Shown here: positions 1,808 to 62,783 of the stretch, piece after piece | Position numbering within the stretch: the first letter of the stretch is position 1 | How the letters are laid out: each line of letters opens with the position of its first letter | Assembly (NCBI GenBank): GCA_964478075.1 | Contig: CAYZGO010000004.1 | Location: forward strand, 60,492-124,491 | Reading direction: 5' to 3' | DNA length: 64,000 bases | From: an uncultured Anaerolineales bacterium | Lineage (GTDB): Bacteria; Chloroflexota; Anaerolineae; UBA2200 | Program-made: the position numbers and the translations under genes | The notes under the pieces: model-generated | What the model was told of the DNA's origin: nothing | Databases searched by the model: none | What the model saw: only the letters and a program-made list of their open reading frames with translations

Positions 1808-1883
1808 GGACACCCTCCAGGTGATAATCAGCTCTTCGCCAATTGTACTACAACTGGGCTCAAAACAAAAGTCCTCACACACC

Positions 1884-1960
1884 CTCCCGCAGGATCACAT
1901 TTGATGAAGAACCACCCGCCTCATCTCGTACCCTTATTGCAAGACAAAACCTGCGGGAGG
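1884..1960. repeat. REP-like inverted repeat (CCTCCCGCAGG ... CCTGCGGGAGG) with a loop of about 55 nt
   Basis: Perfect 11-bp inverted repeat. The arm sequence belongs to the CCCTCCCGGAGG family seen at 6205, 6851, 23824, 32852 and 62555. Confidence 0.5.
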
Positions 1961-1983
1961 ATACCCGACGATGTGTTGGGCGT

Positions 1984-6108: not shown

Positions 6109-6204
6109 TCATGGACTAGGCAGAACCAGGAGCATCCCATAATCCGGAGCCGTCGAGTTATTTGACGGCACACTGTTTCCGGCTAGAATATGGCTACCAA
6201 CCCA

Positions 6205-6235
6205 CCCTCCCGGAGGTTCTCAACCTCCGGGAGGG
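6205..6235. repeat. REP hairpin (CCCTCCCGGAGGTT ctc AACCTCCGGGAGGG) flanking the RAYT gene, 5' side
   Basis: Perfect 14-bp stem with a 3-nt loop, immediately upstream of the IS200-like/RAYT ORF. Confidence 0.7.
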
Positions 6236-6263
6236 TACAGCGGCACAGCAAAGGGGGTAGAGC

Positions 6264-6842
6264 ATGCCCCGCCGGGGCGACGTGTTCGCTGCCGAGAACT
6301 ACTACCACATCTACAATCGAGCGGCGGCAGGCGGCCTGCTATTCTTCAACTCCAGCAACTACGAATACTGCTTGCGCCTAGTCAAGCGGTATCAACAGCA
6401 GTATGGGGCCACCGTGATAGCTTACTGCCTGATGCCCACTCACTACCACTTCCTGCTGAGACAGGAAAGCGATGAGCCCCTGTCCAAGTTCATCGGTGTG
6501 CTCTTCAATGCCTATGTGCAGGCTGTGAACCGGCAACTGGGACGCAGTGGTACCCTATTCGAGGGGCGCTTTCGTCACGTGCGGGTGGACCGGGAAGAGT
6601 ATCTGGTGTATTTGTGCCGATACGTCCATCTGAACCCAGTGGAAGCAGGACTGGTTTCTCGACCTGAAGACTGGCTCTATTCCAACTACCGAGAGTGGAC
6701 TGGACAGCGCGCCGGGACCCTGAAGGACGAGGCATTCATCTTGGAGAGATTCGCAACGCCTGACGCGTATCGACGCTTTGTAGCCGATTGGCAAGGCGCA
6801 GAGCGCTTTGGTGAACAGATACAGAAGTATGTTTGGGACTGA
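6264..6842 (+). CDS. REP-associated tyrosine transposase / IS200-like Y1 (HUH) transposase
   Basis: HUH motif CLMPTHYHFLL and catalytic Tyr region LCRYVHLNPVEAG. Both sides are flanked by the CCCTCCCGGAGGTT hairpin. Confidence 0.8.
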   Translation: MPRRGDVFAAENYYHIYNRAAAGGLLFFNSSNYEYCLRLVKRYQQQYGATVIAYCLMPTHYHFLLRQESDEPLSKFIGVLFNAYVQAVNRQLGRSGTLFEGRFRHVRVDREEYLVYLCRYVHLNPVEAGLVSRPEDWLYSNYREWTGQRAGTLKDEAFILERFATPDAYRRFVADWQGAERFGEQIQKYVWD

Positions 6843-6850
6843 CGCGCCCA

Positions 6851-6880
6851 CCCTCCCGGAGGTTCTGAACCTTCGGGAGG
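6851..6880. repeat. REP hairpin flanking the RAYT gene, 3' side (one mismatch)
   Basis: CCCTCCCGGAGGTT ctg AACCTTCGGGAGG. Sits between the RAYT stop and the RBS of the next gene. Confidence 0.7.
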
Positions 6881-9009: not shown

Positions 9010-9939
9010 ATGCACAGCGCTCAAGATTTGCACAAGGCAGTGATCCCCGTAGGTGGCTTAGGCACTCGTTTGTTGCCTGTTACCAAAGTACTGCCCAAGG
9101 AACTGCTGCCAGTTGGACGGCGCCCAATTGTACAGTACGTTGTGGAAGAAATGCGCGCAGCCGGTCTGGAGTGTATCTGCTTCGTCACGGGGCGCAAGAA
9201 AACGCTCATCCAGGAGCATTTTGACCATGATCCCGAGCTGGTGCGCCACTTGCAGGATCGTGGACGCGACGAGCTTTTGGCGGAACTGGCCTACCTGGAG
9301 TCCGGTCTGCACCTGACGTACATCCGTCAAAGTGGGCCCCAGGGCCTCGCTGATGCGTTGAGTCTAGCCGAGCACTTTGCCGGCGAGGAACCCTTCGTGG
9401 TGGCCTTGGGAGATTCCATTATCTACGAGCCCGAAATGGGGGCACTGCTGCGCAGGATGATGAAGGAGCACATAGAAAAGGACGCGGGAGCTACGATCGC
9501 AGTGGAAACCGTGCCGCTGGAAAAGGTGCGCCAGTATGGCATCGTGCACCCAGCAAAGGCTACGACGGCCAAGGATGATGTATTTGACGTTGATGACCTG
9601 GTCGAAAAGCCCAGGCCCCAGGACGCTCCCAGCAATCTGGCTATTGCCGCGCGCTTCGTCTTCAGTCCTGCAATCTTTTCTGCTATCCGCCACACGAGGC
9701 CAGGACAGGGAGGAGAGATGCACCTGACCGATGCCATTCGCATTCTACTCCGCCAGGGAGGCAAGGTACAGGCGGTGCGGCTCTCTCCAGGACAACGCCG
9801 ACATGACATTGGCAGTTTTGGCGGCTACTTCCGCGCCTTCCTGGAATTTGCCCTGATGGACCGCTACTTCGGAGACGAGGTGCGCGGCTATCTGGAAGAA
9901 GTGGCCGCACGGAAACATGAATGGGAAGATGACGAGTAG
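9010..9939 (+). CDS. galU: UTP--glucose-1-phosphate uridylyltransferase
   Basis: KAVIPVGGLGTRLLP...KELLPV signature. Start at the ATG (MHSAQD) behind a GAGGAAAGGAAG RBS. Confidence 0.85.
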   Translation: MHSAQDLHKAVIPVGGLGTRLLPVTKVLPKELLPVGRRPIVQYVVEEMRAAGLECICFVTGRKKTLIQEHFDHDPELVRHLQDRGRDELLAELAYLESGLHLTYIRQSGPQGLADALSLAEHFAGEEPFVVALGDSIIYEPEMGALLRRMMKEHIEKDAGATIAVETVPLEKVRQYGIVHPAKATTAKDDVFDVDDLVEKPRPQDAPSNLAIAARFVFSPAIFSAIRHTRPGQGGEMHLTDAIRILLRQGGKVQAVRLSPGQRRHDIGSFGGYFRAFLEFALMDRYFGDEVRGYLEEVAARKHEWEDDE

Positions 9940-9965
9940 CCGCGAGTTACGGGCAGGAGGAAGAT

Positions 9966-11072
9966 TTGACTGAGAAGGGCAACATCTGCGGTACTTCTGC
10001 GGATATCGCACAACAGTTGGCAGCGGCGATTGACGAGGTGTTCACGGTTGACCAAATCACTGCTGGCCTGCGCGATGGGCGAGCGATAAAGCTACAGGGA
10101 CAGCTTCTCACCGACTCGGAGCAGGCGTACGCTTACATAGCTGCGCGCTTCAAGGACTATGGCTACACACCGTTCTTGCGCCAACAAACTGGGCACGTGC
10201 TCGTTACCGCTATCCCTGTCGTCTTCACTGCTAAGCCAGCCGGGAATTATGGCGCCATCCTATTGTTCGCTCTGACTATCCTTTCGGTGCTGTTTGCCGG
10301 CACAGCAGCACAAGCCGCCGATCTGCAGTGGCTGCTCAGTCACCCCCTGGCCGGGTTGCCTTTCGCCGCCAGCCTTCTCGCCATCTTGACTGCACACGAA
10401 CTGGGACACTACTTCATGGCACGGCGGCTTGGCGTAGCGGTCAGCCTGCCCTATTTCATTCCCATGCCGCTGAGCCCCTTGGGCACCATGGGCGCCGTAA
10501 TCCGGATGCGAACTCCGACGCGCAACCGCCGCCAACTCCTGGCCATCGGTGCTGCTGGGCCCATAGCTGGCCTGATCGTTGCCATTCCCGTCCTCATCCT
10601 CGGCCTACTCCTCTCAGAAGTGCGGGTCATCCTCATGCAACCAGGAACCTGGATGGAGGGCAACTCCCTGCTGTATGCAGCGCTGAAATTGCTCGTGTTC
10701 GGGCAGTTTCTGCCCCACAATGGCTACGACGTCTTCCTGCATCCGGTGGCATTCGCAGCGTGGGCTGGGTTGCTGGTTACTGCATTCAATCTGATTCCTG
10801 CCGGACAGCTTGATGGAGGTCATATCGCCTATGCCCTCTTCGGAAAGAGTACGCGCTGGCTGAATCGTCTCGCTGTCCTGGTAGCTATGGCTCTGGGTCT
10901 TGCTTGGTCCGGCTGGTTCCTTTGGGCGGCCATTCTCCTCCTACTGGGCCAGCGCAGTGTACAGCCACTAGATGACGTCACTCCATTGACTGCTGGACAG
11001 AAAGCGCTCAGCGTTTGTATGCTGATCCTATTCGCTTTGCTGTTCACGCCCATACCCATGTCCATACTCTGA
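9966..11072 (+). CDS. site-2 protease family (peptidase M50) membrane metalloprotease
   Basis: HELGH zinc motif and NLIPAGQLDGGH third-ligand motif, multiple TMs. TTG start behind an AGGAGGA RBS. Confidence 0.8.
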   Translation: MTEKGNICGTSADIAQQLAAAIDEVFTVDQITAGLRDGRAIKLQGQLLTDSEQAYAYIAARFKDYGYTPFLRQQTGHVLVTAIPVVFTAKPAGNYGAILLFALTILSVLFAGTAAQAADLQWLLSHPLAGLPFAASLLAILTAHELGHYFMARRLGVAVSLPYFIPMPLSPLGTMGAVIRMRTPTRNRRQLLAIGAAGPIAGLIVAIPVLILGLLLSEVRVILMQPGTWMEGNSLLYAALKLLVFGQFLPHNGYDVFLHPVAFAAWAGLLVTAFNLIPAGQLDGGHIAYALFGKSTRWLNRLAVLVAMALGLAWSGWFLWAAILLLLGQRSVQPLDDVTPLTAGQKALSVCMLILFALLFTPIPMSIL

Positions 11073-11538: not shown

Positions 11539-13335
11539 ATGAGCACTATAGGCCGCTGGGCGGCACGCATCGCTGAATCCCTGTTCGACATCTTTGCCGC
11601 CATCACAGGCTTCTACTACTCCAAGAAGTATGCCGCCATCGTCAGGCGGCTGGGGCTGCGCCAGCAAGCGACGAGTGATGTAGAGCGCCCGGGACTGATC
11701 ATCATTCAAATAGACGGATTGGCTCACGATCATCTTGTGCAGGCTATGGAGAAGGGGTGCCTGCCGCACATCAAAAGGATGCTCAAGAGGGGCGACGTCG
11801 TCCTCTCTCCCTGGCGCTGCGGCCTCCCCAGCAGCACCCCTGCCTGCCAGGCCGGCATCATGTTCGGTGAAAACGACGACATCCCCGCCTTTCGCTGGTA
11901 TGACAAAGCACAGGGAACATCTGTGGTCTGCAAACTGCCCCGAATAGCAGCCTCTCTGCAAAGTCGCGTATCACGTGGAAAGACGGGCATCCTTACAGGC
12001 GGCTCGAGTTATGTGAATTTGTTCGATGGCGGCGCCACCCGCTCCCTGTTCACTCTCAGCGCCTTGCACCCCCGACGCTTTTTCGAAGGCGTACGAGGGC
12101 TCGGGTTCATAGTCCTCTTCTTGCTCAACCCCTTTCGCACACTGCGGGTTATCTACCTGGCAATGAAGGAATACGTCACTGATGGCCTGCAGAGGCTGTC
12201 CTTACGTGTGAAGGGCCAGTCACACCTGCCTTTCATTGGCATCTTCCCCCTGCTGCGCATATTCAGCAACGTCATCTTCCGCGACATAGAGACGTTCGCC
12301 GTGCTGGTGGACATCTATCTAAGCGTGCCCGCCATCTACGCTACGTACTATGGCTACGACGAGATGGCTCATCACTTTGGCGTAGATTCAATAGCTGCCC
12401 GCCAGGCCCTGCGCGGCATTGATAGTTGTATAGGGCAGATAGATCGCCTGAGGCGTGCCAACCTCAGCCGCGCTTATACGCTCTGTCTCCTCGGCGATCA
12501 CGGCCTCACACCGTCCCAACCCTTCATTGACAGCTACGGGCAGAGCCTCGGGCAGTACATCGCAGAGCAACTCGGTGACAGCGTTTTCCTCGTGGAACAC
12601 GCGGGCGGAGAACAGCAATACCTTTTCCAGACTCGCTTTCTGCTGGACGAATTGAAAGCCATCGAAAACAACCTCCCGCCAGCAGCATCAAAGGTAGCAC
12701 GCCGGATTCGGATACTGGTGCGGCGACGACTGGCGCTCAACAACGAACTGCCCGAATGGAACGTGCACCGGCAGTACGACGTGGTGGTCAAGAATTCCGG
12801 CTCGCTGGCGCACGTTTATTTCAACATCACCACCCGCCGCATGGATTTGAGCGAGATTTCCGCTGCATTCCCTGGGCTGGTCATCAAGCTGCTGGCCCAC
12901 GAAGGCATTTGGCTGGTTGTGGCGCGTGAGGGGCAGCAAACACTGATCATGGCCCGTGACGGCATCCTGACCCTCGACGCTGAGGCTCAGGCCCACGTGG
13001 AAGGTAAGAATCCCCTTCTGAGACTGCCAGAGCCGTGGCAGGCTGCAGAACAGATACGTCGTGTTGCCTCTTTTACCCAGAGCGGCGACCTGATGCTTTT
13101 GGGCACCTACGAGCCAGAGGAGGATACGGTCATCTGCTTTGAAAGGCAGTGGGCCTCGCATGGTGGCCTTGGCGGCCCACAGGATTATCCCTTCATCCTC
13201 TATCCACGTCACCTGAAGTGGGATCTGTCCCACGTGCATAACTCACGCGATCTGTACCCCCTCTTTGTCAGCCAACGGGCCTTCGACCCCAGAGAAGAAG
13301 AACAAACCGGAGAGCAAGCATGCGTATCGAGTTAG
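11539..13335 (+). CDS. alkaline phosphatase superfamily protein (type I phosphodiesterase / nucleotide pyrophosphatase-like)
   Basis: IIQIDGLAHD metal-binding start, TPACQAGIMFG nucleophile region, GDHG later. 598 aa. Confidence 0.65.
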   Translation: MSTIGRWAARIAESLFDIFAAITGFYYSKKYAAIVRRLGLRQQATSDVERPGLIIIQIDGLAHDHLVQAMEKGCLPHIKRMLKRGDVVLSPWRCGLPSSTPACQAGIMFGENDDIPAFRWYDKAQGTSVVCKLPRIAASLQSRVSRGKTGILTGGSSYVNLFDGGATRSLFTLSALHPRRFFEGVRGLGFIVLFLLNPFRTLRVIYLAMKEYVTDGLQRLSLRVKGQSHLPFIGIFPLLRIFSNVIFRDIETFAVLVDIYLSVPAIYATYYGYDEMAHHFGVDSIAARQALRGIDSCIGQIDRLRRANLSRAYTLCLLGDHGLTPSQPFIDSYGQSLGQYIAEQLGDSVFLVEHAGGEQQYLFQTRFLLDELKAIENNLPPAASKVARRIRILVRRRLALNNELPEWNVHRQYDVVVKNSGSLAHVYFNITTRRMDLSEISAAFPGLVIKLLAHEGIWLVVAREGQQTLIMARDGILTLDAEAQAHVEGKNPLLRLPEPWQAAEQIRRVASFTQSGDLMLLGTYEPEEDTVICFERQWASHGGLGGPQDYPFILYPRHLKWDLSHVHNSRDLYPLFVSQRAFDPREEEQTGEQACVSS

Positions 13336-13769
13336 AACCCATAGGCGTGGCGAGAAACGAATTCGAGGAAGCAGTGCCCCACGGCTGGAGAACTGCTCTG
13401 TCTCGCATCATCGTCGCTGAGAAATGGGCACCGGCATTGGATGGCCTGGAGGAGTTCTCACACCTGAGCATTCTCTTCTGGCTGCACCGCATGCGGCGTA
13501 AAGTGTCACTGCACATTCACCCGCAAGGGCGCCATGACCTGCCGCTTGTGGGGCTGTTCGCTACTCGTACACCCGTGCGTCCCAATCCCATCGGGTTGCA
13601 GATCGTAGAGTTCGTATCCAGAGAGAAAAACGTGCTTACCGTACGCGGCCTCGACGCGCTCAACGAGAGCCCCGTTCTGGACATCAAGCCCTATCTTCCG
13701 CGAGGTGAGTGCATTGCCGAGCCTGCCATCCCTGCCTGGCTGAAGAAGCTGTGGTCAGAGGACAAATGA
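13320..13769 (+). CDS. tsaA: tRNA (N6-threonylcarbamoyladenosine37) methyltransferase TsaA/TrmO-like (YaeB family)
   Basis: LEGFSHL..LFW and NPIGL motifs typical of the YaeB/TrmO fold. 16-nt overlap with the upstream gene. Confidence 0.7.
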   Translation: MRIELEPIGVARNEFEEAVPHGWRTALSRIIVAEKWAPALDGLEEFSHLSILFWLHRMRRKVSLHIHPQGRHDLPLVGLFATRTPVRPNPIGLQIVEFVSREKNVLTVRGLDALNESPVLDIKPYLPRGECIAEPAIPAWLKKLWSEDK

Positions 13770-13789
13770 ACGCTGGTAGCCGGGCAGGG

Positions 13790-15244
13790 CTAGGCTGAGC
13801 ACTGGCGCAGGAACTCGAGAGCCTCTTTTGTAGTGCGTACCTGCCCTTCAGCCTGCGCTTCGCGCACCTCCTCCAGAAGCCGCCCCACTTCAGGCCCTGG
13901 CTGCAGGCCTAACAGCGTCATTACGTCGCGGCCGCTCACCAGCGGCGATGGGGCCACTGCCACGTGCGCCTTCCGGAAATAGTTGTCCAGCATCAGGCTG
14001 GTCAGTTCCAGATGCCGCCGCCAGTGGTCCTCAAGAGATGCTGCTCCCTGGGCAGCCCGATAGCCGGCTAGGGAGAGTATGAGCACATCTATGCCCGCGT
14101 CGCCGGTGTCACGAAAGAAGCGATAGATGTGCCTCCCGGTGACTGGCGGCCCTTGAACCAGGAGCCCCGGTCGCGTGTGCTGAGCAACGACTGTGCTTAC
14201 CAGGCGGATCTCCCGCGCGGCGAAACGGAGCCGGGTGAGCACCTGCGTGGCGATTTCTGCGCTGAGTCGCTCATACCCGAGAAAGCGTGCGCCCCCATCG
14301 GCCTCCCCTGTGCTGGTCTCCGACCTACCGGCCCCGTGCAGCATGGCAGCAAACTTGAGTAGAGTGGAGCGCCTGCGCTTTTCGCAAATCGTCTCGCTAA
14401 AATGCGCCGCCAGATCAGCGGCGAATGGCCCCAGCGAGTGTGCCTCATCCGGGCCGAGTTGCGCATCCGGGAATGCGCTCAGCCGCTCAACTTCGGCGAT
14501 TGTGGCCAGTGTGTGCTCGTAGACGTCAGCGGCACGTGAATCAGGCTGAGGAAGGCCTTTGAGAGATGCCAATTCGGGGATGACGCCGCGCATCAGACCC
14601 AGGTCATCCATGCGCCGCAAATGATCTGCCGCTCCTGGTGAAGCCACTATGAGTGCCAGTTCCTGTCTTATCCGCTCTGCTGAAGGCTGCGTGACCAGAG
14701 GCGCATCGCGCCGTATCCACGACTCTGTGTGCGGTTCAATGCTCAGGTTCAGAGTCGCGACAAAACGCAGCGCGCGCAGCAGCCGCACCGGATCTTGCTG
14801 AAAAGCATGCTCGCTCGTAGCCCGCAGAATGCGGGCCTCCAAGTCGCCCCGTCCACGACAGGGGTCAAGTATCTGGGGCTCGGGCTCATACCATTCGCGC
14901 ACATCTACGGCCATAGCGTTGATTGTGAAATCACGCGCTCTCAGGTCAGCAATAACGTCCACGCCCCGCATCGCCGCAAAGTCAACGGTCAAATCATGGG
15001 GCCGAGGATAGACAATTCGGGCCGCGTCCGTTTGTTCATCCAGGACGTAAAACGCCCCTTCAGTGTCGTCGGCGACGCGACGTGCGAGAGGCACAGCAGC
15101 ACCATCAACCGCAAAATCCACGTCCCTGCCTGGCTGCTTCAGGAGGCGCTCGCGCACATAGCCGCCAGCGACGTAGCATGGCTGCGCTTCGCTGCACAGC
15201 AGGCCAATGATGCGCTTCAGCAAATCATTCCCGCTCAGGTCCAT
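13790..15244 (-). CDS. cca: CCA tRNA nucleotidyltransferase (poly(A) polymerase head domain plus HD domain)
   Basis: GGxVRD (AGGYVRERLL) nucleotidyltransferase motif, then a long helical and HD-like C-terminal part. 484 aa. Confidence 0.75.
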   Translation of the reverse strand: MDLSGNDLLKRIIGLLCSEAQPCYVAGGYVRERLLKQPGRDVDFAVDGAAVPLARRVADDTEGAFYVLDEQTDAARIVYPRPHDLTVDFAAMRGVDVIADLRARDFTINAMAVDVREWYEPEPQILDPCRGRGDLEARILRATSEHAFQQDPVRLLRALRFVATLNLSIEPHTESWIRRDAPLVTQPSAERIRQELALIVASPGAADHLRRMDDLGLMRGVIPELASLKGLPQPDSRAADVYEHTLATIAEVERLSAFPDAQLGPDEAHSLGPFAADLAAHFSETICEKRRRSTLLKFAAMLHGAGRSETSTGEADGGARFLGYERLSAEIATQVLTRLRFAAREIRLVSTVVAQHTRPGLLVQGPPVTGRHIYRFFRDTGDAGIDVLILSLAGYRAAQGAASLEDHWRRHLELTSLMLDNYFRKAHVAVAPSPLVSGRDVMTLLGLQPGPEVGRLLEEVREAQAEGQVRTTKEALEFLRQCSA

Positions 15245-16772: not shown

Positions 16773-17471
16773 CTAGGCGCTGGTTTCCTCAGCGGCTTGG
16801 TAATTCGAAACCGTCCTTAGGCACAATTCCTGCTCCAGGATATGATCTTCCTGACGTGCCAACGCCTCGCTCAGACCAGCCCCCGCTTGCTCGACTGTTT
16901 CTCTGGAGTCGTACAGTTCGCTCTGCGCCTGCTGCTTGACACCCATCCACTGGCGATGAAAACTCCTGGCGACAAAGACCAGCGCAATGGCGATGACGAG
17001 GCCCACATACCATTCCACGTTCTCCAGAACGAAGAACACAAAGAGCCAGGCCACAAGCCCCAGCAGGCCTCCGGCATAAGTCTGGTTTTGCGCAGGTGAG
17101 ATTGCCCTCTGACATTCTCTTTTCAGTTCCTGGTGTGCCGAGATAGCCTCCTCGAGTTGTTCACGCTTTGCCTCCACTTCTTGCTCTACGTCAGCGATAG
17201 CTCTCTCGAGGTAGGTCAGGCGTCTCTCTGCGGCCTCAAACGAAGCGCCGTCCACCTCCATTGCCAGGATTGACTCGAATCCCGTGAGCTGCGGTGCATC
17301 AGGATCTGGCCAATCAATGACAAACTTTGAGCCACAGTGCTCGCAGCGGCAGTGTCCCTGATCGGCGGCTATGGTCATGGGGGCGGAACATTGAGGGCAA
17401 TTCACCGGCTGTAGCGTCACCTTGACGGCCACCTTTCCACTACCTTCAGGGTCTGGAGAAGCTACGACCAT
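16773..17471 (-). CDS. hypothetical protein: N-terminal double CxxC zinc ribbon, coiled coil, one TM helix
   Basis: CPQC...CRCEHC, then a coiled coil and the hydrophobic LLGLVAWLFVFFVL. GGAGGGAGAA RBS. A consensus promoter lies about 110 nt upstream. Confidence 0.5.
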   Translation of the reverse strand: MVVASPDPEGSGKVAVKVTLQPVNCPQCSAPMTIAADQGHCRCEHCGSKFVIDWPDPDAPQLTGFESILAMEVDGASFEAAERRLTYLERAIADVEQEVEAKREQLEEAISAHQELKRECQRAISPAQNQTYAGGLLGLVAWLFVFFVLENVEWYVGLVIAIALVFVARSFHRQWMGVKQQAQSELYDSRETVEQAGAGLSEALARQEDHILEQELCLRTVSNYQAAEETSA

Positions 17472-17581
17472 TTCTCCCTCCTTTTCTCCCTGGCGCTCCT
17501 AAGGGCCTCATTAATCGCAGCGGACTCTGCGCGCGCTCCCATCCCCCTTGGCTCACATAGGTCTACCATCTACCCGACAGT

Positions 17582-17877: not shown

Positions 17878-17925
17878 CGTTTACGCCTTCCGTTTACGCC
17901 TCTGGCGTAAACGGAAGGCGTAAAG
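17878..17925. repeat. 21-bp near-perfect palindrome (CGTTTACGCCTTCCGTTTACGCC tctg GCGTAAACGGAAGGCGTAAAG) inside an 825-bp non-coding gap
   Basis: 20/21 complementary arms with a 4-nt loop. Flanking sequence carries further, less perfect inverted repeats. Confidence 0.6.
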
Positions 17926-23672: not shown

Positions 23673-23749
23673 TGGGGTGGATGACGGGATTTGAACCCGC
23701 AACAACTGGTTCCACAGACCAGCGCTCTGACCGTTGAGCTACATCCACC
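23673..23749 (-). tRNA. tRNA-His (anticodon GTG) with encoded G-1 and 3' CCA
   Basis: Minus-strand read gGTGGATGTAGCTCAACGGTCAGAGCGCTGGTCTGTGGAACCAGTTGTTGCGGGTTCAAATCCCGTCATCCACCCCA: 7-bp acceptor stem, anticodon loop CTGTGGA, T-loop GTTCAAATC, extra 5' G pairing with discriminator C. Confidence 0.85.
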
Positions 23750-23823
23750 ATGCCGTTCCGACAGCCCAAGTATACATCACTTGGGGCCGAAATGCAAATT
23801 GCTCCTGTGCCAGGGCGCGAGAA

Positions 23824-23865
23824 CCCTCCCGCAGGTTCGATCGCCATAAGTAACGTCCGGGAGGG
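23824..23865. repeat. REP-like hairpin (CCCTCCCGCAGG ... CGTCCGGGAGGG) just upstream of tRNA-His
   Basis: Imperfect member of the CCCTCCCGGAGG family (two swapped positions in one arm), 18-nt loop. Confidence 0.45.
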
Positions 23866-23893
23866 TCTGCTTACTGGACAGCGTACCGCTCAA

Positions 23894-26017: not shown

Positions 26018-26299
26018 GCTTTACCACCTTGGCATTTGTGGAGATCAAAACGAGGAACTAGGAAACATGCAGGACTGGAAGCCACGCTTCTCACACACGG
26101 ACGGGCGACAAACCATGTCCATCGCTTGCGCACAGCACACGCTAGCAGTCTGGCTTCTGAACAGTCACCCACGCACCTGAGGCGCACCAATACAAATGAC
26201 ACAAGTCGCCAGCCGGGCCCCTATCGCTCAACATCTCCGCACCGCCGTGAAGCAGGCGGTGCTGGGGTGCCGTCCTGCAGATTCCCCCCCCCAGGCTCC

Positions 26300-26332
26300 A
26301 GGTGACCGGCACCTCTAAGGTGCCGGTCACCT
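26300..26332. terminator. perfect 14-bp hairpin (AGGTGACCGGCACC tctaa GGTGCCGGTCACCT) downstream of the LysM-cohesin gene
   Basis: Lies 25 nt past the stop of the 26357-27442 gene on its 3' side. No U-tract, so it is a GC-hairpin type terminator or RNA-stability element. Confidence 0.4.
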
Positions 26333-26356
26333 GATATGTCCAGGCGTCAAATCAAC

Positions 26357-32645: not shown

Positions 32646-32851
32646 TTCATCTCCTCCCTTGTGCAAAGCGACGTGATACGTAGCACTGGCTCACAGGTTT
32701 ACTAACATTATCTTACCACGAAAGTGCCAGATTGTCAACGTAAGCTAATCTGAGACTTACCTGCAAGTTTACCAAGGATTCGGTCACCGGCGGTGGCAGA
32801 CACGACGGGGTTTCAACCTAAGCCGGCGCTGTAGGTCAGATTGGGAGCAAA

Positions 32852-32950
32852 CAGACTCTCCCGTAGGTTACCAACAACGGTTTCGCTTTCTTGGGATACC
32901 TCGAGCGTCACGGAAGGGCACTCAACACGTTATCAGAAACTACGGGAGGG
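32852..32950. repeat. long-loop REP-like element (CTCCCGTAGGTTACCAACAACG ... GGGCACTCA ... ATCAGAAACTACGGGAGGG), copy 1
   Basis: Terminal inverted repeats related to the CCCTCCCGGAGG REP family. About 65-70% identical over 100 bp to 62555-62651, with compensatory changes in the stem. Confidence 0.6.
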
Positions 32951-33028
32951 CTCGCTCCAGAAACTTGCCCCCAACCCAGTGTCCAGTTGTCAAGGACGGC
33001 GAATGCACGTATAATCTCACCGTAATTC

Positions 33029-33643
33029 ATGACGCAAGGGGATAGCAGCAGATACGCTTGTCCCCGGGAGGTCAAGAACACATTGAACCCACTTGAAATC
33101 AGGCCCTGGGAAGTTCTCGAATCCTCGATTGTCTTCTCCAACCGCTGGCTGCGCGTGCGCAAGGACGTCTGCCACACCAACCGGGGCAACGTCACTGACT
33201 ATTATCTCGTGGAACGCTCCGACTATGTGCTGATCGTGGCGCTCACGCCAGAATCGGAAGTGCTGGTGACGCGCCAGTACAAGCACGGCGCCAGGCAGGT
33301 GGTGCGCGAGCTACCGGCGGGCTACGTCGAAGACGGTGAGGACCCGCTGCAATGCGCACACCGTGAATTGCGCGAGGAGACCGGCTACGAAGCCGCCAGG
33401 ATGGAGCAACTGGCCGTGCTGTTCGCCTCGCCTAGTGCGTCGCGGCACCGCGGGCACCTGTTCCTGGCTACCGGGCTGCGCCGTGCCGGCGAACAACGTT
33501 TGGACACCAACGAGAAGATCGTGGTAGAGAAGATGGATTTTGCCGCAGCAGTGCAGGCCGCCGCACACAATCAGGTGTTCGAGGGCCTCAGCAGCACCGC
33601 GGCGCTGCTCATGGCCTGGCAGCGGCTGCACGGTGCAGACTGA
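33029..33643 (+). CDS. NUDIX hydrolase (ADP-ribose pyrophosphatase-like)
   Basis: Nudix box GYVEDGEDPLQCAHRELREETGY. N-terminal WEVLESSIVFSNRWLRVRKD is typical of ADPRase-type Nudix proteins. Confidence 0.75.
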   Translation: MTQGDSSRYACPREVKNTLNPLEIRPWEVLESSIVFSNRWLRVRKDVCHTNRGNVTDYYLVERSDYVLIVALTPESEVLVTRQYKHGARQVVRELPAGYVEDGEDPLQCAHRELREETGYEAARMEQLAVLFASPSASRHRGHLFLATGLRRAGEQRLDTNEKIVVEKMDFAAAVQAAAHNQVFEGLSSTAALLMAWQRLHGAD

Positions 33644-38236: not shown

Positions 38237-38543
38237 GTCGGAATGTCATTCCGACGTACTATGCTGCGTCGGTCAGAGCTCGCTCCGTAAGTCGGAATGT
38301 CATTCCGACGTAGCACGCTCCGTCCGTCGGAGTTCGCCCCGTTGGTCGGAATGTCATTCCGACATAGCACGCTCCGTCCGTCGCAGCTCGCTCCGTTGGT
38401 CAGAATGTCATTCCGACTTAGCACCCTCCGTCCGTCGGAGTTCGCTCCGTTGGTCGGAATGACATTCCGACATAGCACGCTCCGTCCGTCGGAGTTCGCC
38501 CCGTTGGTCGGAATGTCATTCCGACTTACTACGACGTACTATG
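38237..38543. repeat. tandem array of a palindromic repeat with 54 bp periodicity, six copies of the 19-bp core, last unit partial (GTCGGAATGTCATTCCGAC core plus 35-bp near-identical linker); BIME/REP-array-like, adjacent to the second RAYT gene
   Basis: Six near-perfect 19-bp palindromes at 54-bp periodicity. The linkers are about 85% identical to each other, so they are not CRISPR spacers. All three forward frames stay open only because the unit is 18 codons. Confidence 0.8.
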
Positions 38544-39171
38544 TTGTGATGTATGTCCAGGGCCACGTTTCCCAATCAGAGGTCAGGCCCGCTTTTACCG
38601 GATTGTTGACTATGTACTGTACGATGCGGCCTAGTTCGTTCGCGTCCCGCACCACGTGATCATAACTTTCCGCCTGCCAGAACGTACCTTGCCGACCCAA
38701 GACCTTGTTTGCCTGTCGCGCCGTATGTCGTTTGAGGGATTGGAGGATCCGATGGAGGGCATAATACGTGCCGTCTTGACGTTGCAGCGGTGTACAGACC
38801 AAATGCACGTGATTGGGCATAATGCAAAATGCCAGTAGATCATATACCCGCCCGTGACGATAATGCAGGGCCTGAACAACCACCGTGGCCACTCGTGGGT
38901 CTGCTAGCCAGTGTGGGCCATACTCTGAAAAGTCTACGGCTGCGTCCCATAGCCCAAACGCGCGTCGCTCATCCAGATAGGCTTGCTTCTGGCGCTCTTG
39001 CGTGTCGCCGATGTGTGATAGCGCGCGTTCCTCTTGGTCGCGTTTTTCCTGCAACGCGGCGAGTACTGCACGCGGCAACGAGCCAGCAAGTCGGAAAGTG
39101 ACGAACAATGTTGCTCCGCCTGGCTGCCAATGCGGTAAATGGCGACGATAGAATACGCGATGGTCTGTCAT
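38539..39171 (-). CDS. REP-associated tyrosine transposase (RAYT, IS200-like Y1 HUH transposase), second and distinct family
   Basis: YRRHLPHWQPGGATLFVTFRL N-terminal RAYT motif, HUH motif CIMPNHVHLV, then GTFWQAESYDHVVRD and a catalytic Tyr region (VQYIVNNPVKAGL). Start at the ATG (MTDHR); the ORF track's TTG is 15 nt further up. Confidence 0.75.
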   Translation of the reverse strand: MTDHRVFYRRHLPHWQPGGATLFVTFRLAGSLPRAVLAALQEKRDQEERALSHIGDTQERQKQAYLDERRAFGLWDAAVDFSEYGPHWLADPRVATVVVQALHYRHGRVYDLLAFCIMPNHVHLVCTPLQRQDGTYYALHRILQSLKRHTARQANKVLGRQGTFWQAESYDHVVRDANELGRIVQYIVNNPVKAGLTSDWETWPWTYITT

Positions 39172-39195
39172 AGGCCGGATTGACAATCCGGCCTA
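39171..39195. repeat. perfect 12-bp palindrome TAGGCCGGATTG a CAATCCGGCCTA overlapping the RAYT start
   Basis: Seen directly at the 5' boundary of the second RAYT gene. Possible terminal hairpin or operator. Confidence 0.5.
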
Positions 39196-62398: not shown

Positions 62399-62554
62399 AA
62401 GGACAACCTCGTACTTTCAAGTAGCGATACCAGGGCTGGCAAACTGAGCCAAGCCCACAACAGTAGGTATCACATCACCTGTTTCCCGGAAAACAGTATA
62501 CGATGAATTGGCCTCCTGTGCAAGCCACTCTCTTCGTGGGCTTGGGCATAAGCA

Positions 62555-62651
62555 GACCCTCCCGGAGGTTACCAACAACGCCTTGCACTTTGTGCGATCT
62601 GTCAAGCGTCCCGGCGGGGCACTCACCATGCCATCAGAACCTCCGGGAGGG
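62555..62651. repeat. long-loop REP-like element, copy 2 (CTCCCGGAGGTTACCAACAACG ... GGGCACTCA ... ATCAGAACCTCCGGGAGGG)
   Basis: Homologous to 32852-32950. Its stem uses the canonical CCCTCCCGGAGG arm. Confidence 0.6.
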
Positions 62652-62783
62652 TTCGCCTGGTGCAACAAACTGTTGCCCACTGAGGGAACTTGTGCTATAC
62701 TGCGTCAGGGTTGGCAGTACGCAGCCAAGGGTCTTTTTCACTCCCCTTCGAAAAGGTGTTGGGCAAAGAATCGGAGCATAGGA

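Follow-up and report, generated by a model that had tools for sequence, protein, structure and literature searches.

A RAYT gene and its REP hairpin family in an uncultured Anaerolineales bacterium, with two long-loop copies that are probably REPIN-like elements

The 64-kb stretch of DNA analysed here (the window) holds a RAYT gene and a family of six hairpins, all of them intergenic: elements A, B, C and D, and two short hairpins around RAYT (Table 1). The arm motif CTCCCGNAG has 13 matches in the window against 2.5 expected, a count as high being reached in 0 of 100 shuffles. The spacers of the family in this window measure 3, 14, 52 or 67 nt; a high copy number in the genome would be an extrapolation from these 64 kb. 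Elements A and B are each flanked by divergent promoters, which belong to a 1693-aa cohesin/dockerin gene and a NUDIX gene for A and to a queuosine-salvage-like gene and a methyltransferase for B.

Table 1. The RAYT gene and the hairpin family in the window
Feature	Coordinates	Strand	Description
Element C	1881..1962	+	Same REP arms, C-G at the variable position; 52 nt between 15-nt arms
Short REP hairpin	6204..6236	+	15-bp stem, 3-nt loop; directly 5' of RAYT, within its probable 5' leader
RAYT	6264..6842	+	192 aa; HUH/Y1 transposase, IS200 superfamily, REP-associated type
Short REP hairpin	6850..6880	+	3-nt loop; directly 3' of the RAYT stop codon; G.T wobble at the variable position
Element D	23817..23873	-	Hairpin 23823-23866 with 14-nt loop; stem mismatches G.G and C.C
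Element A	32849..32955	+	Sequence; alignment with B; nhmmer E = 3e-28 (model built partly from A itself)
Element A, parts	5' flank AAACAGA 32849-32855; left arm 32856-32869; 67-nt loop 32870-32936; right arm 32937-32950; 3' flank CTCGC 32951-32955		
Element B	62549..62657	+	Sequence; perfect 15-bp inverted repeat; DNA fold -24.5 kcal/mol, z = -3.65
Element B, parts	5' flank TAAGCAG 62549-62555; left arm 62556-62570; 67-nt loop 62571-62637; right arm 62638-62652; 3' flank TCGCC 62653-62657		

Elements A and B are homologous units of ~105 nt, in which a stem of 14-15 bp surrounds a 67-nt loop; a preliminary description of this DNA, which had presented them as two elements of ~100 bp with terminal inverted repeats and common blocks, was right about both their sites and their homology. 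Their identity is 83% in a MAFFT alignment and 77% over 116 nt by blastn, the aligned span being about 116-146 nt, and their arms read ACCCTCCCGGAGGTT / AACCTCCGGGAGGGT. The blocks AGGTTACCAACAACG and GGGCACTCA-CA-G--ATCAGAA have two exact matches in the window, at the A and B sites only. In dinucleotide shuffles, the second of these blocks is expected 0.03 times and the hairpin pattern CTCCCGNAGG...CCTNCGGGAG 0.00 times.

The stem of B is paired at 15 of 15 positions (62556-62570 with 62638-62652). That of A (32856-32869 with 32937-32950) consists of 12 Watson-Crick pairs, one T.G wobble and one G.A mismatch out of 14, the latter two being visible as CTCTCCC opposite GGGAGGG. A compensated pair occupies the ninth position of the 14-nt arm (CCCTCCCG-N) and is T-A in A and G-C in B; the T-to-G change matched by an A-to-C change that had been claimed for the two stems is thus real. 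The stem letters originally given need one correction, in that the right arm of A reads ACTACGGGAG and not CCTACGGGAG.

The likeness of A and B reaches past the stems by ~7 nt on the 5' side (AA(A/G)CAGA) and 5 nt on the 3' side ((C/T)TCGC), and then ends. The outer flanks of the two elements, including a shared downstream -35 box, align no better than shuffles. A and B are discrete units, each embedded in unrelated DNA. Reading of the sequence around A, B and D revealed no direct repeat of the kind left by target-site duplication, which is as expected for IS200/IS605-type chemistry. With respect to the features of a classical MITE (the DDE-transposase type), the inverted repeats are therefore present and the target-site duplication is absent. 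A and B differ at 30% of spacer positions and at 4 of 28 stem bases, two of these four being the compensated pair. With this spacer divergence, they are old copies or belong to separate sub-lineages and do not stem from a recent jump.

Elements C and D differ from this pair in distinct ways. The long loop of C is unlike the A/B loop. Read on the minus strand, D matches A and B in the flanks TAAGCAGA and TTC(T)CGC and in the bases at either end of the loop, and is without ~53 nt of the A/B loop; from its sequence, it is probably a decaying internal-deletion copy of the same sub-lineage. In this genome, the A/B-type spacer is known from only two copies and one deletion derivative. As to the surroundings of these elements, C lies between a rhomboid-family gene on the minus strand and a MiaB-like radical-SAM gene on the plus strand. 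D is ~75 nt upstream of a tRNA gene (23676-23748), with a promoter-like TTTGCA-18-TATACT between them. One arm of D is of the G variant and the other of the C variant, as if the element were chimeric.

Scans of two public collections, which barely cover this genome and returned one of the two known copies, revealed no further spacer of the A/B type. In the 324 kb searched by nhmmer, with a full and a loop-only model, there were no more copies of the A/B type. An exact-pattern scan of genome contigs gave 12 matches, approximately the chance number, and the two Chloroflexi matches that were inspected read as coding sequence. A scan of metagenome contigs returned only the contig of copy A itself. 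Viral contigs contained five long-loop hairpins with similar arms and no relatives of RAYT; one of these hairpins, in L030, resembles a family member, its loop similarity to A/B being not significant. Two perfect hairpins in the window with 3-nt loops, at 17880-17924 (21-bp arms) and 26299-26333 (16-bp arms), are unrelated to the REP family and may be terminators or members of other repeat families.

The RAYT protein scores 29.7 bits against Pfam Y1_Tnp (cut-off 23) and 70.1 bits against NCBIfam REP_Tyr_transpos (E = 2e-19), the latter being below the curated cut-off of 80. Its sole PDB match is a weak one to E. coli TnpA-REP (4ER8, E = 0.034), in which the HUH motif (HYH to HMH) and the Tyr motif (YVHLNPV to YIYINPV) are aligned. 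Homologues of equal length number more than 1000; several of them are named RayT by JGI or are assigned to Chloroflexota or Anaerolineae MAGs. A promoter-like site at 6162-6189 lies upstream of the 5' hairpin of the gene. The 3-nt-loop hairpins on both sides of RAYT carry the same 15-nt arms as A and B; thus, A and B carry exactly the arms that flank RAYT. In eight related contigs (L021, L023, L026, L034, L035, L036, L037 and L038), RAYT has the same palindrome on one flank or on both; the RAYTs of these contigs are 72-99% identical, and the palindromes have C-G at the variable position. The proposal that the two elements are linked to the RAYT gene at 6264 is borne out by both the bracketing of the gene in the window and its flanks in these contigs.

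Directly 5' of RAYT, L026 and L037 carry a hairpin whose loop of 65-67 nt is homologous to the A/B loop and collinear with it. A Smith-Waterman comparison of the loops of B and L026 gave p = 0.002; nhmmer scores are not independent here, since A, B, L026 and L037 were themselves the input of the model. The A/B spacer lineage is thus common to genomes whose RAYTs are 73-75% identical. The loops of C, L030 and L035 have no detectable homology to the A/B loop. Long spacers have thus arisen more than once, the A/B type being one old lineage.

Several further features of the RAYT loci deserve mention. The RAYT neighbourhood differs in every case examined (L021, L023, L026, L034, L035, L036, L037 and the window), the neighbours in relatives including helicases, type I R-M genes, CHAT/TIR genes and a protease, among others. 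In this, the loci are unlike the REPIN-associated RAYTs of Proteobacteria, which are described as stably positioned. L021 (1380-2200) and L023 (8470-8500) have only the right REP arm 5' of RAYT. In L021, ~50 nt of the 5' end of the downstream gene are duplicated upstream of the RAYT unit; this duplication, together with the half-hairpin, hints that the RAYT unit may have moved with half a hairpin. L035 has triple tandem arrays of the short REP at 9852-9970 (period 46 nt) and at 13768-13941 (about 72-75 nt), the first 5' of RAYT and the second ~3 kb downstream. In L034, the 21-nt loop of a REP at 12348-12392 is itself a hairpin.

Elements A and B lie upstream of both flanking -35 boxes, and neither is framed by a promoter or a terminator. 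Two relatives, L039 (NUDIX 74% identical) and L042 (82%), lack A in the syntenic intergenic region, although the promoter regions on both sides align; the central intergenic part is not alignable in these contigs, so that they provide no exact empty site, and the difference may also be due to loss in the relatives. The absence of A from both relatives indicates that A is lineage-specific and not a conserved regulatory part of the locus. No excision or insertion polymorphism was seen at A, where contigs from other samples are all identical. The divergent promoters and the NUDIX 5' leader (CATGACG..AAGG..GCAGATACGC) are themselves conserved between the window (32660-33095), L039 (9493-10075) and L042 (622-1000). 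The NUDIX homologues are 183-195 aa long, so that the true start of the gene is probably near 33083 and not at 33029.

The preliminary description held that covariation between the stems of A and B implies selection on the folded structure. A and B alone do not show this: one compensated pair is expected among four random substitutions with p of about 0.07, so that the pair by itself is only suggestive, and the stem is only weakly better conserved than the loop between the two elements (Fisher p = 0.09). At the level of the family, the claim is supported. The arms of 32 non-redundant hairpins from nine sources were compared over the 15-bp stem. Among the stem cells, 93% are paired; part of this is built in, since the hairpins were found by means of their core. 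Covariation is present in three columns, all of them outside the positions used for hairpin finding: an outer pair (C-G, A-T, G-C, T-A), the variable pair (C-G, G-C, T-A) and an inner pair (T-A, C-G). Paired cells with a double change number 14, compared with 2.8 +/- 1.4 in shuffles, and the covariation score is 0.108, compared with 0.048 +/- 0.007; for each measure, 0 of 500 shuffles were as high. The covariation score is far lower in slid registers.

Uncompensated stem changes at a similar frequency had been named beforehand as an argument against such selection. Unpaired cells at the three covarying columns are indeed about as frequent (13) as compensated ones, with uncompensated mismatches in D (23823-23866), in A and in the 3' RAYT hairpin; the covariation nevertheless extends beyond the position seen in A and B, to three columns. 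Individual copies decay, and paired lineages persist.

These observations bear on the view that A and B are inert REP relics, no longer mobilised or selected, in which the compensated pair arose by chance, gene conversion or template switching within the palindrome, the latter two copying one arm onto the other. The 30% divergence of the spacers, the mismatch and wobble in A, the two mismatches in D and the lack of polymorphism across samples are all compatible with inert copies. So are the chance probability of the single compensated pair among four stem differences and the resemblance of D to a chimera of G-type and C-type arms, such as recombination between copies would yield. Nevertheless, the stem of B is perfect over 15 bp despite the divergence of its spacer, and the covariation is family-wide, involving three positions in several genomes and loci. 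Template switching, moreover, accounts for the pairing of the arms but not for their persistence beside RAYT genes that are 64-78% identical. For these reasons, we consider it unlikely that the elements are inert.

The spacer tells a different story from the stem. Its identity between the window and L026 or L037 is 50-53%, compared with 36-45% at fourfold-degenerate sites of RAYT; between L026 and L037, the corresponding values are 75% and 69%. The spacer thus drifts almost neutrally. A few blocks within it (TTRCCA, TCAAGC, GCAC and CAGAA) are kept between genomes whose synonymous sites are saturated. As DNA, the loops of A, B, L026 and L037 are not more stable than shuffled sequences (z = +0.2 to +1.4). 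The complete unit is more stable than shuffled sequences (z = -2.5 to -5.0), all of the excess being contributed by the REP stem. RNAalifold supported no inner-loop helix on either strand. An extension of the stem by a few G-U pairs on the minus strand was considered and rejected, as it is not conserved and is broken in L026.

These data make it extremely unlikely that the elements encode a structured RNA or form part of one, be it a small RNA or a cis-regulatory leader. The idea, raised as an alternative in the preliminary description, draws on the folding of the whole unit, on the minus-strand extension and on an excess of T.G wobbles over C.A mismatches of 6 to 1 on the strand as given, which is not significant. 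The two hints of strand clash, the T.G wobble of A favouring the plus strand and the extension the minus strand. Rfam 15 gave no match to the elements at gathering scores and only noise up to E = 10 (E >= 0.8). The loop alone folds like shuffles and has no convincing covarying helix. Furthermore, the elements lie upstream of the divergent promoters on both sides, are unframed by signals of their own and are not conserved at the orthologous locus.

Another reading assigns the 67-nt spacer a function within this Chloroflexota RAYT system, either as a cis-acting site read by RAYT or a host protein or as a means of controlling RAYT expression. It arises from the long-spacer hairpin directly 5' of RAYT in two relatives and from the blocks that outlast synonymous saturation. 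A consensus scan found no promoter inside the long loop of L026 or L037 that could drive RAYT. Were the spacer a functional module, the orphan copies A and B could act as decoys or as local regulators near promoters. On the present data, we regard such a module as distinctly improbable.

A related proposal is that the elements are architectural or regulatory sites at the DNA level, similar to the BIME and RIP of E. coli, whose spacer blocks bind a host protein or RAYT and which insulate or modulate divergent promoters. The placement of the hairpins lends itself to this: A, B, C and the 5' RAYT hairpin all lie between divergent genes, and A, B and D each precede a promoter-like -35 box of the same strand by ~20-50 bases. 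The persistence of the blocks and the unstructured state of the spacer are what would be expected of a duplex binding site. In contrast, the two relatives that are without A have both promoters conserved, and the element is thus not needed for those promoters. Flanks past ~8 nt are unrelated, overall spacer drift is near neutral, and the IHF consensus WATCAANNNNTTR, read against the sequence, is not matched in A or B. We therefore judge an architectural role to be very unlikely.

In our opinion, A and B are probably REPIN-like, non-autonomous elements of the REP family belonging to the RAYT at 6264-6842. As their arms are those that bracket RAYT, they add one more case to a known class of miniature mobile DNA in bacteria and are not a new RNA. 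The suggestion that they are MITE-like mobile units serviced by this RAYT fits their discrete ends and the absence of A from the syntenic site in two relatives. Several observations weigh against the REPIN interpretation: the few known copies with this spacer, the identity of all samples at A, the lack of an exact empty site, a spacer that does not pair, hairpins without GTAG, a RAYT score below the NCBIfam cut-off, and a stem only weakly better conserved than the loop between A and B. A possible mechanism is suggested by how IS200/IS605 TnpA and E. coli TnpA-REP are known to act. According to this model, the arms would fold into the 15-bp stem on single-stranded DNA, and RAYT would recognise the foot of the stem and the adjacent bases, cleave beside the stem and reinsert the unit without target duplication. 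Only lineages with a paired stem would keep being copied, which could produce the compensated changes between C-G, G-C and T-A at the variable position; the spacer would be mostly a passenger.

The proposed mechanism invites comparison with IS200/IS605 elements such as IS608 and ISDra2, whose Y1 HUH transposase recognises subterminal hairpins on single-stranded DNA and generates no target-site duplication. Short conserved bases beside the hairpin foot belong to the unit in these elements; their left hairpin differs from the right one, both are imperfect, and the transposase is encoded within the element. The family described here resembles IS200/IS605 ends and their miniature derivatives in the Y1 HUH enzyme, the lack of target-site duplication and the conserved bases next to the foot. 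Unlike them, it consists of a near-perfect palindrome that is dispersed alone, a single RAYT gene for this palindrome having been found in the window. In E. coli, the HUH/Y1 RAYT is likewise flanked by REP hairpins, and RIP/RIB elements consist of a REP, an IHF site and a second REP. The window has in common with this REP/BIME system a RAYT between REP hairpins and inverted REPs around a spacer with conserved sequence. It differs in that GTAG is missing from the foot of the hairpin, which is flanked by CAGA, CCCA or ACA in the window and by NAA in relatives. The spacer is also without the IHF consensus of the RIP/BIME type, and the stems are longer, perfect and not bulged.

The closest parallels are, in many respects, with the REPINs of Pseudomonas fluorescens SBW25. 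These consist of two inverted REPs in a hairpin of ~100 nt, with a spacer less conserved than the arms (Bertels and Rainey 2011, PMC3116915; PMC3337134). They form families with several spacer lengths, the commonest GI spacing being 71 bp. Compensatory changes occur frequently in these extragenic elements, and copies of the repeat also flank the cognate RAYT (PMC3116915; PMC3337134). The spacer of Pseudomonas REPINs itself pairs, so that the whole element is one long hairpin (PMC3337134). Inverted arms, a less conserved spacer, several spacings, compensatory changes, extragenic location and RAYT-flanking repeats are all found in the present family. Unlike in SBW25, however, each REP is one arm of a single 15-bp palindrome, the short form is a plain 3-nt-loop hairpin, and the 67-nt spacer is an open, unstructured loop without a long paired stem. 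The host, a member of the Chloroflexota, the unrelated arm sequence and the RAYT context, which differs in every relative examined, are further points of difference.

A second comparison concerns the GTAG and CGTC REP superfamilies, or "TIRtrons". In the excerpted text of Di Nocera et al. (2013, PMC3733652), these are stem-loop families with complementary stem changes and variable loop length; RAYT-like genes are flanked by the repeats of the family, and GTAG repeats are reported in Chloroflexi. The largest inner loop region quoted in that excerpt is ~27 bp and self-complementary (PMC3733652). As far as the excerpt goes, the present family is similar in its complementary stem changes, variable loop length and RAYT-flanking repeats, and differs in loops that reach 67 nt and are not self-complementary and in having no GTAG or CGTC tag.

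Most analyses of REP/REPIN-RAYT systems have concerned Proteobacteria. The present family adds a clear case from an uncultured Chloroflexota lineage, with a clade of 192-aa RAYTs that has more than 1000 metagenomic homologues; no new category of element is opened by it. The hairpins form a natural series for asking what the transposase needs, as they combine 3-nt and ~67-nt spacers with three Watson-Crick variants at one stem position.

The window contains a second RAYT-like ORF at 38539-39186 on the minus strand, which scores 82.9 bits against NCBIfam REP_Tyr_transpos, above the cut-off. It adjoins a tandem array (38237-38525, spacing ~54 nt) built of another palindrome, GTCGGAATGTCATTCCGAC. 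In L039, the syntenic position is occupied by a 198-aa ORF (16983-17579) that has arrays of a further palindrome, GCACGCAAGTGC, on its flanks.
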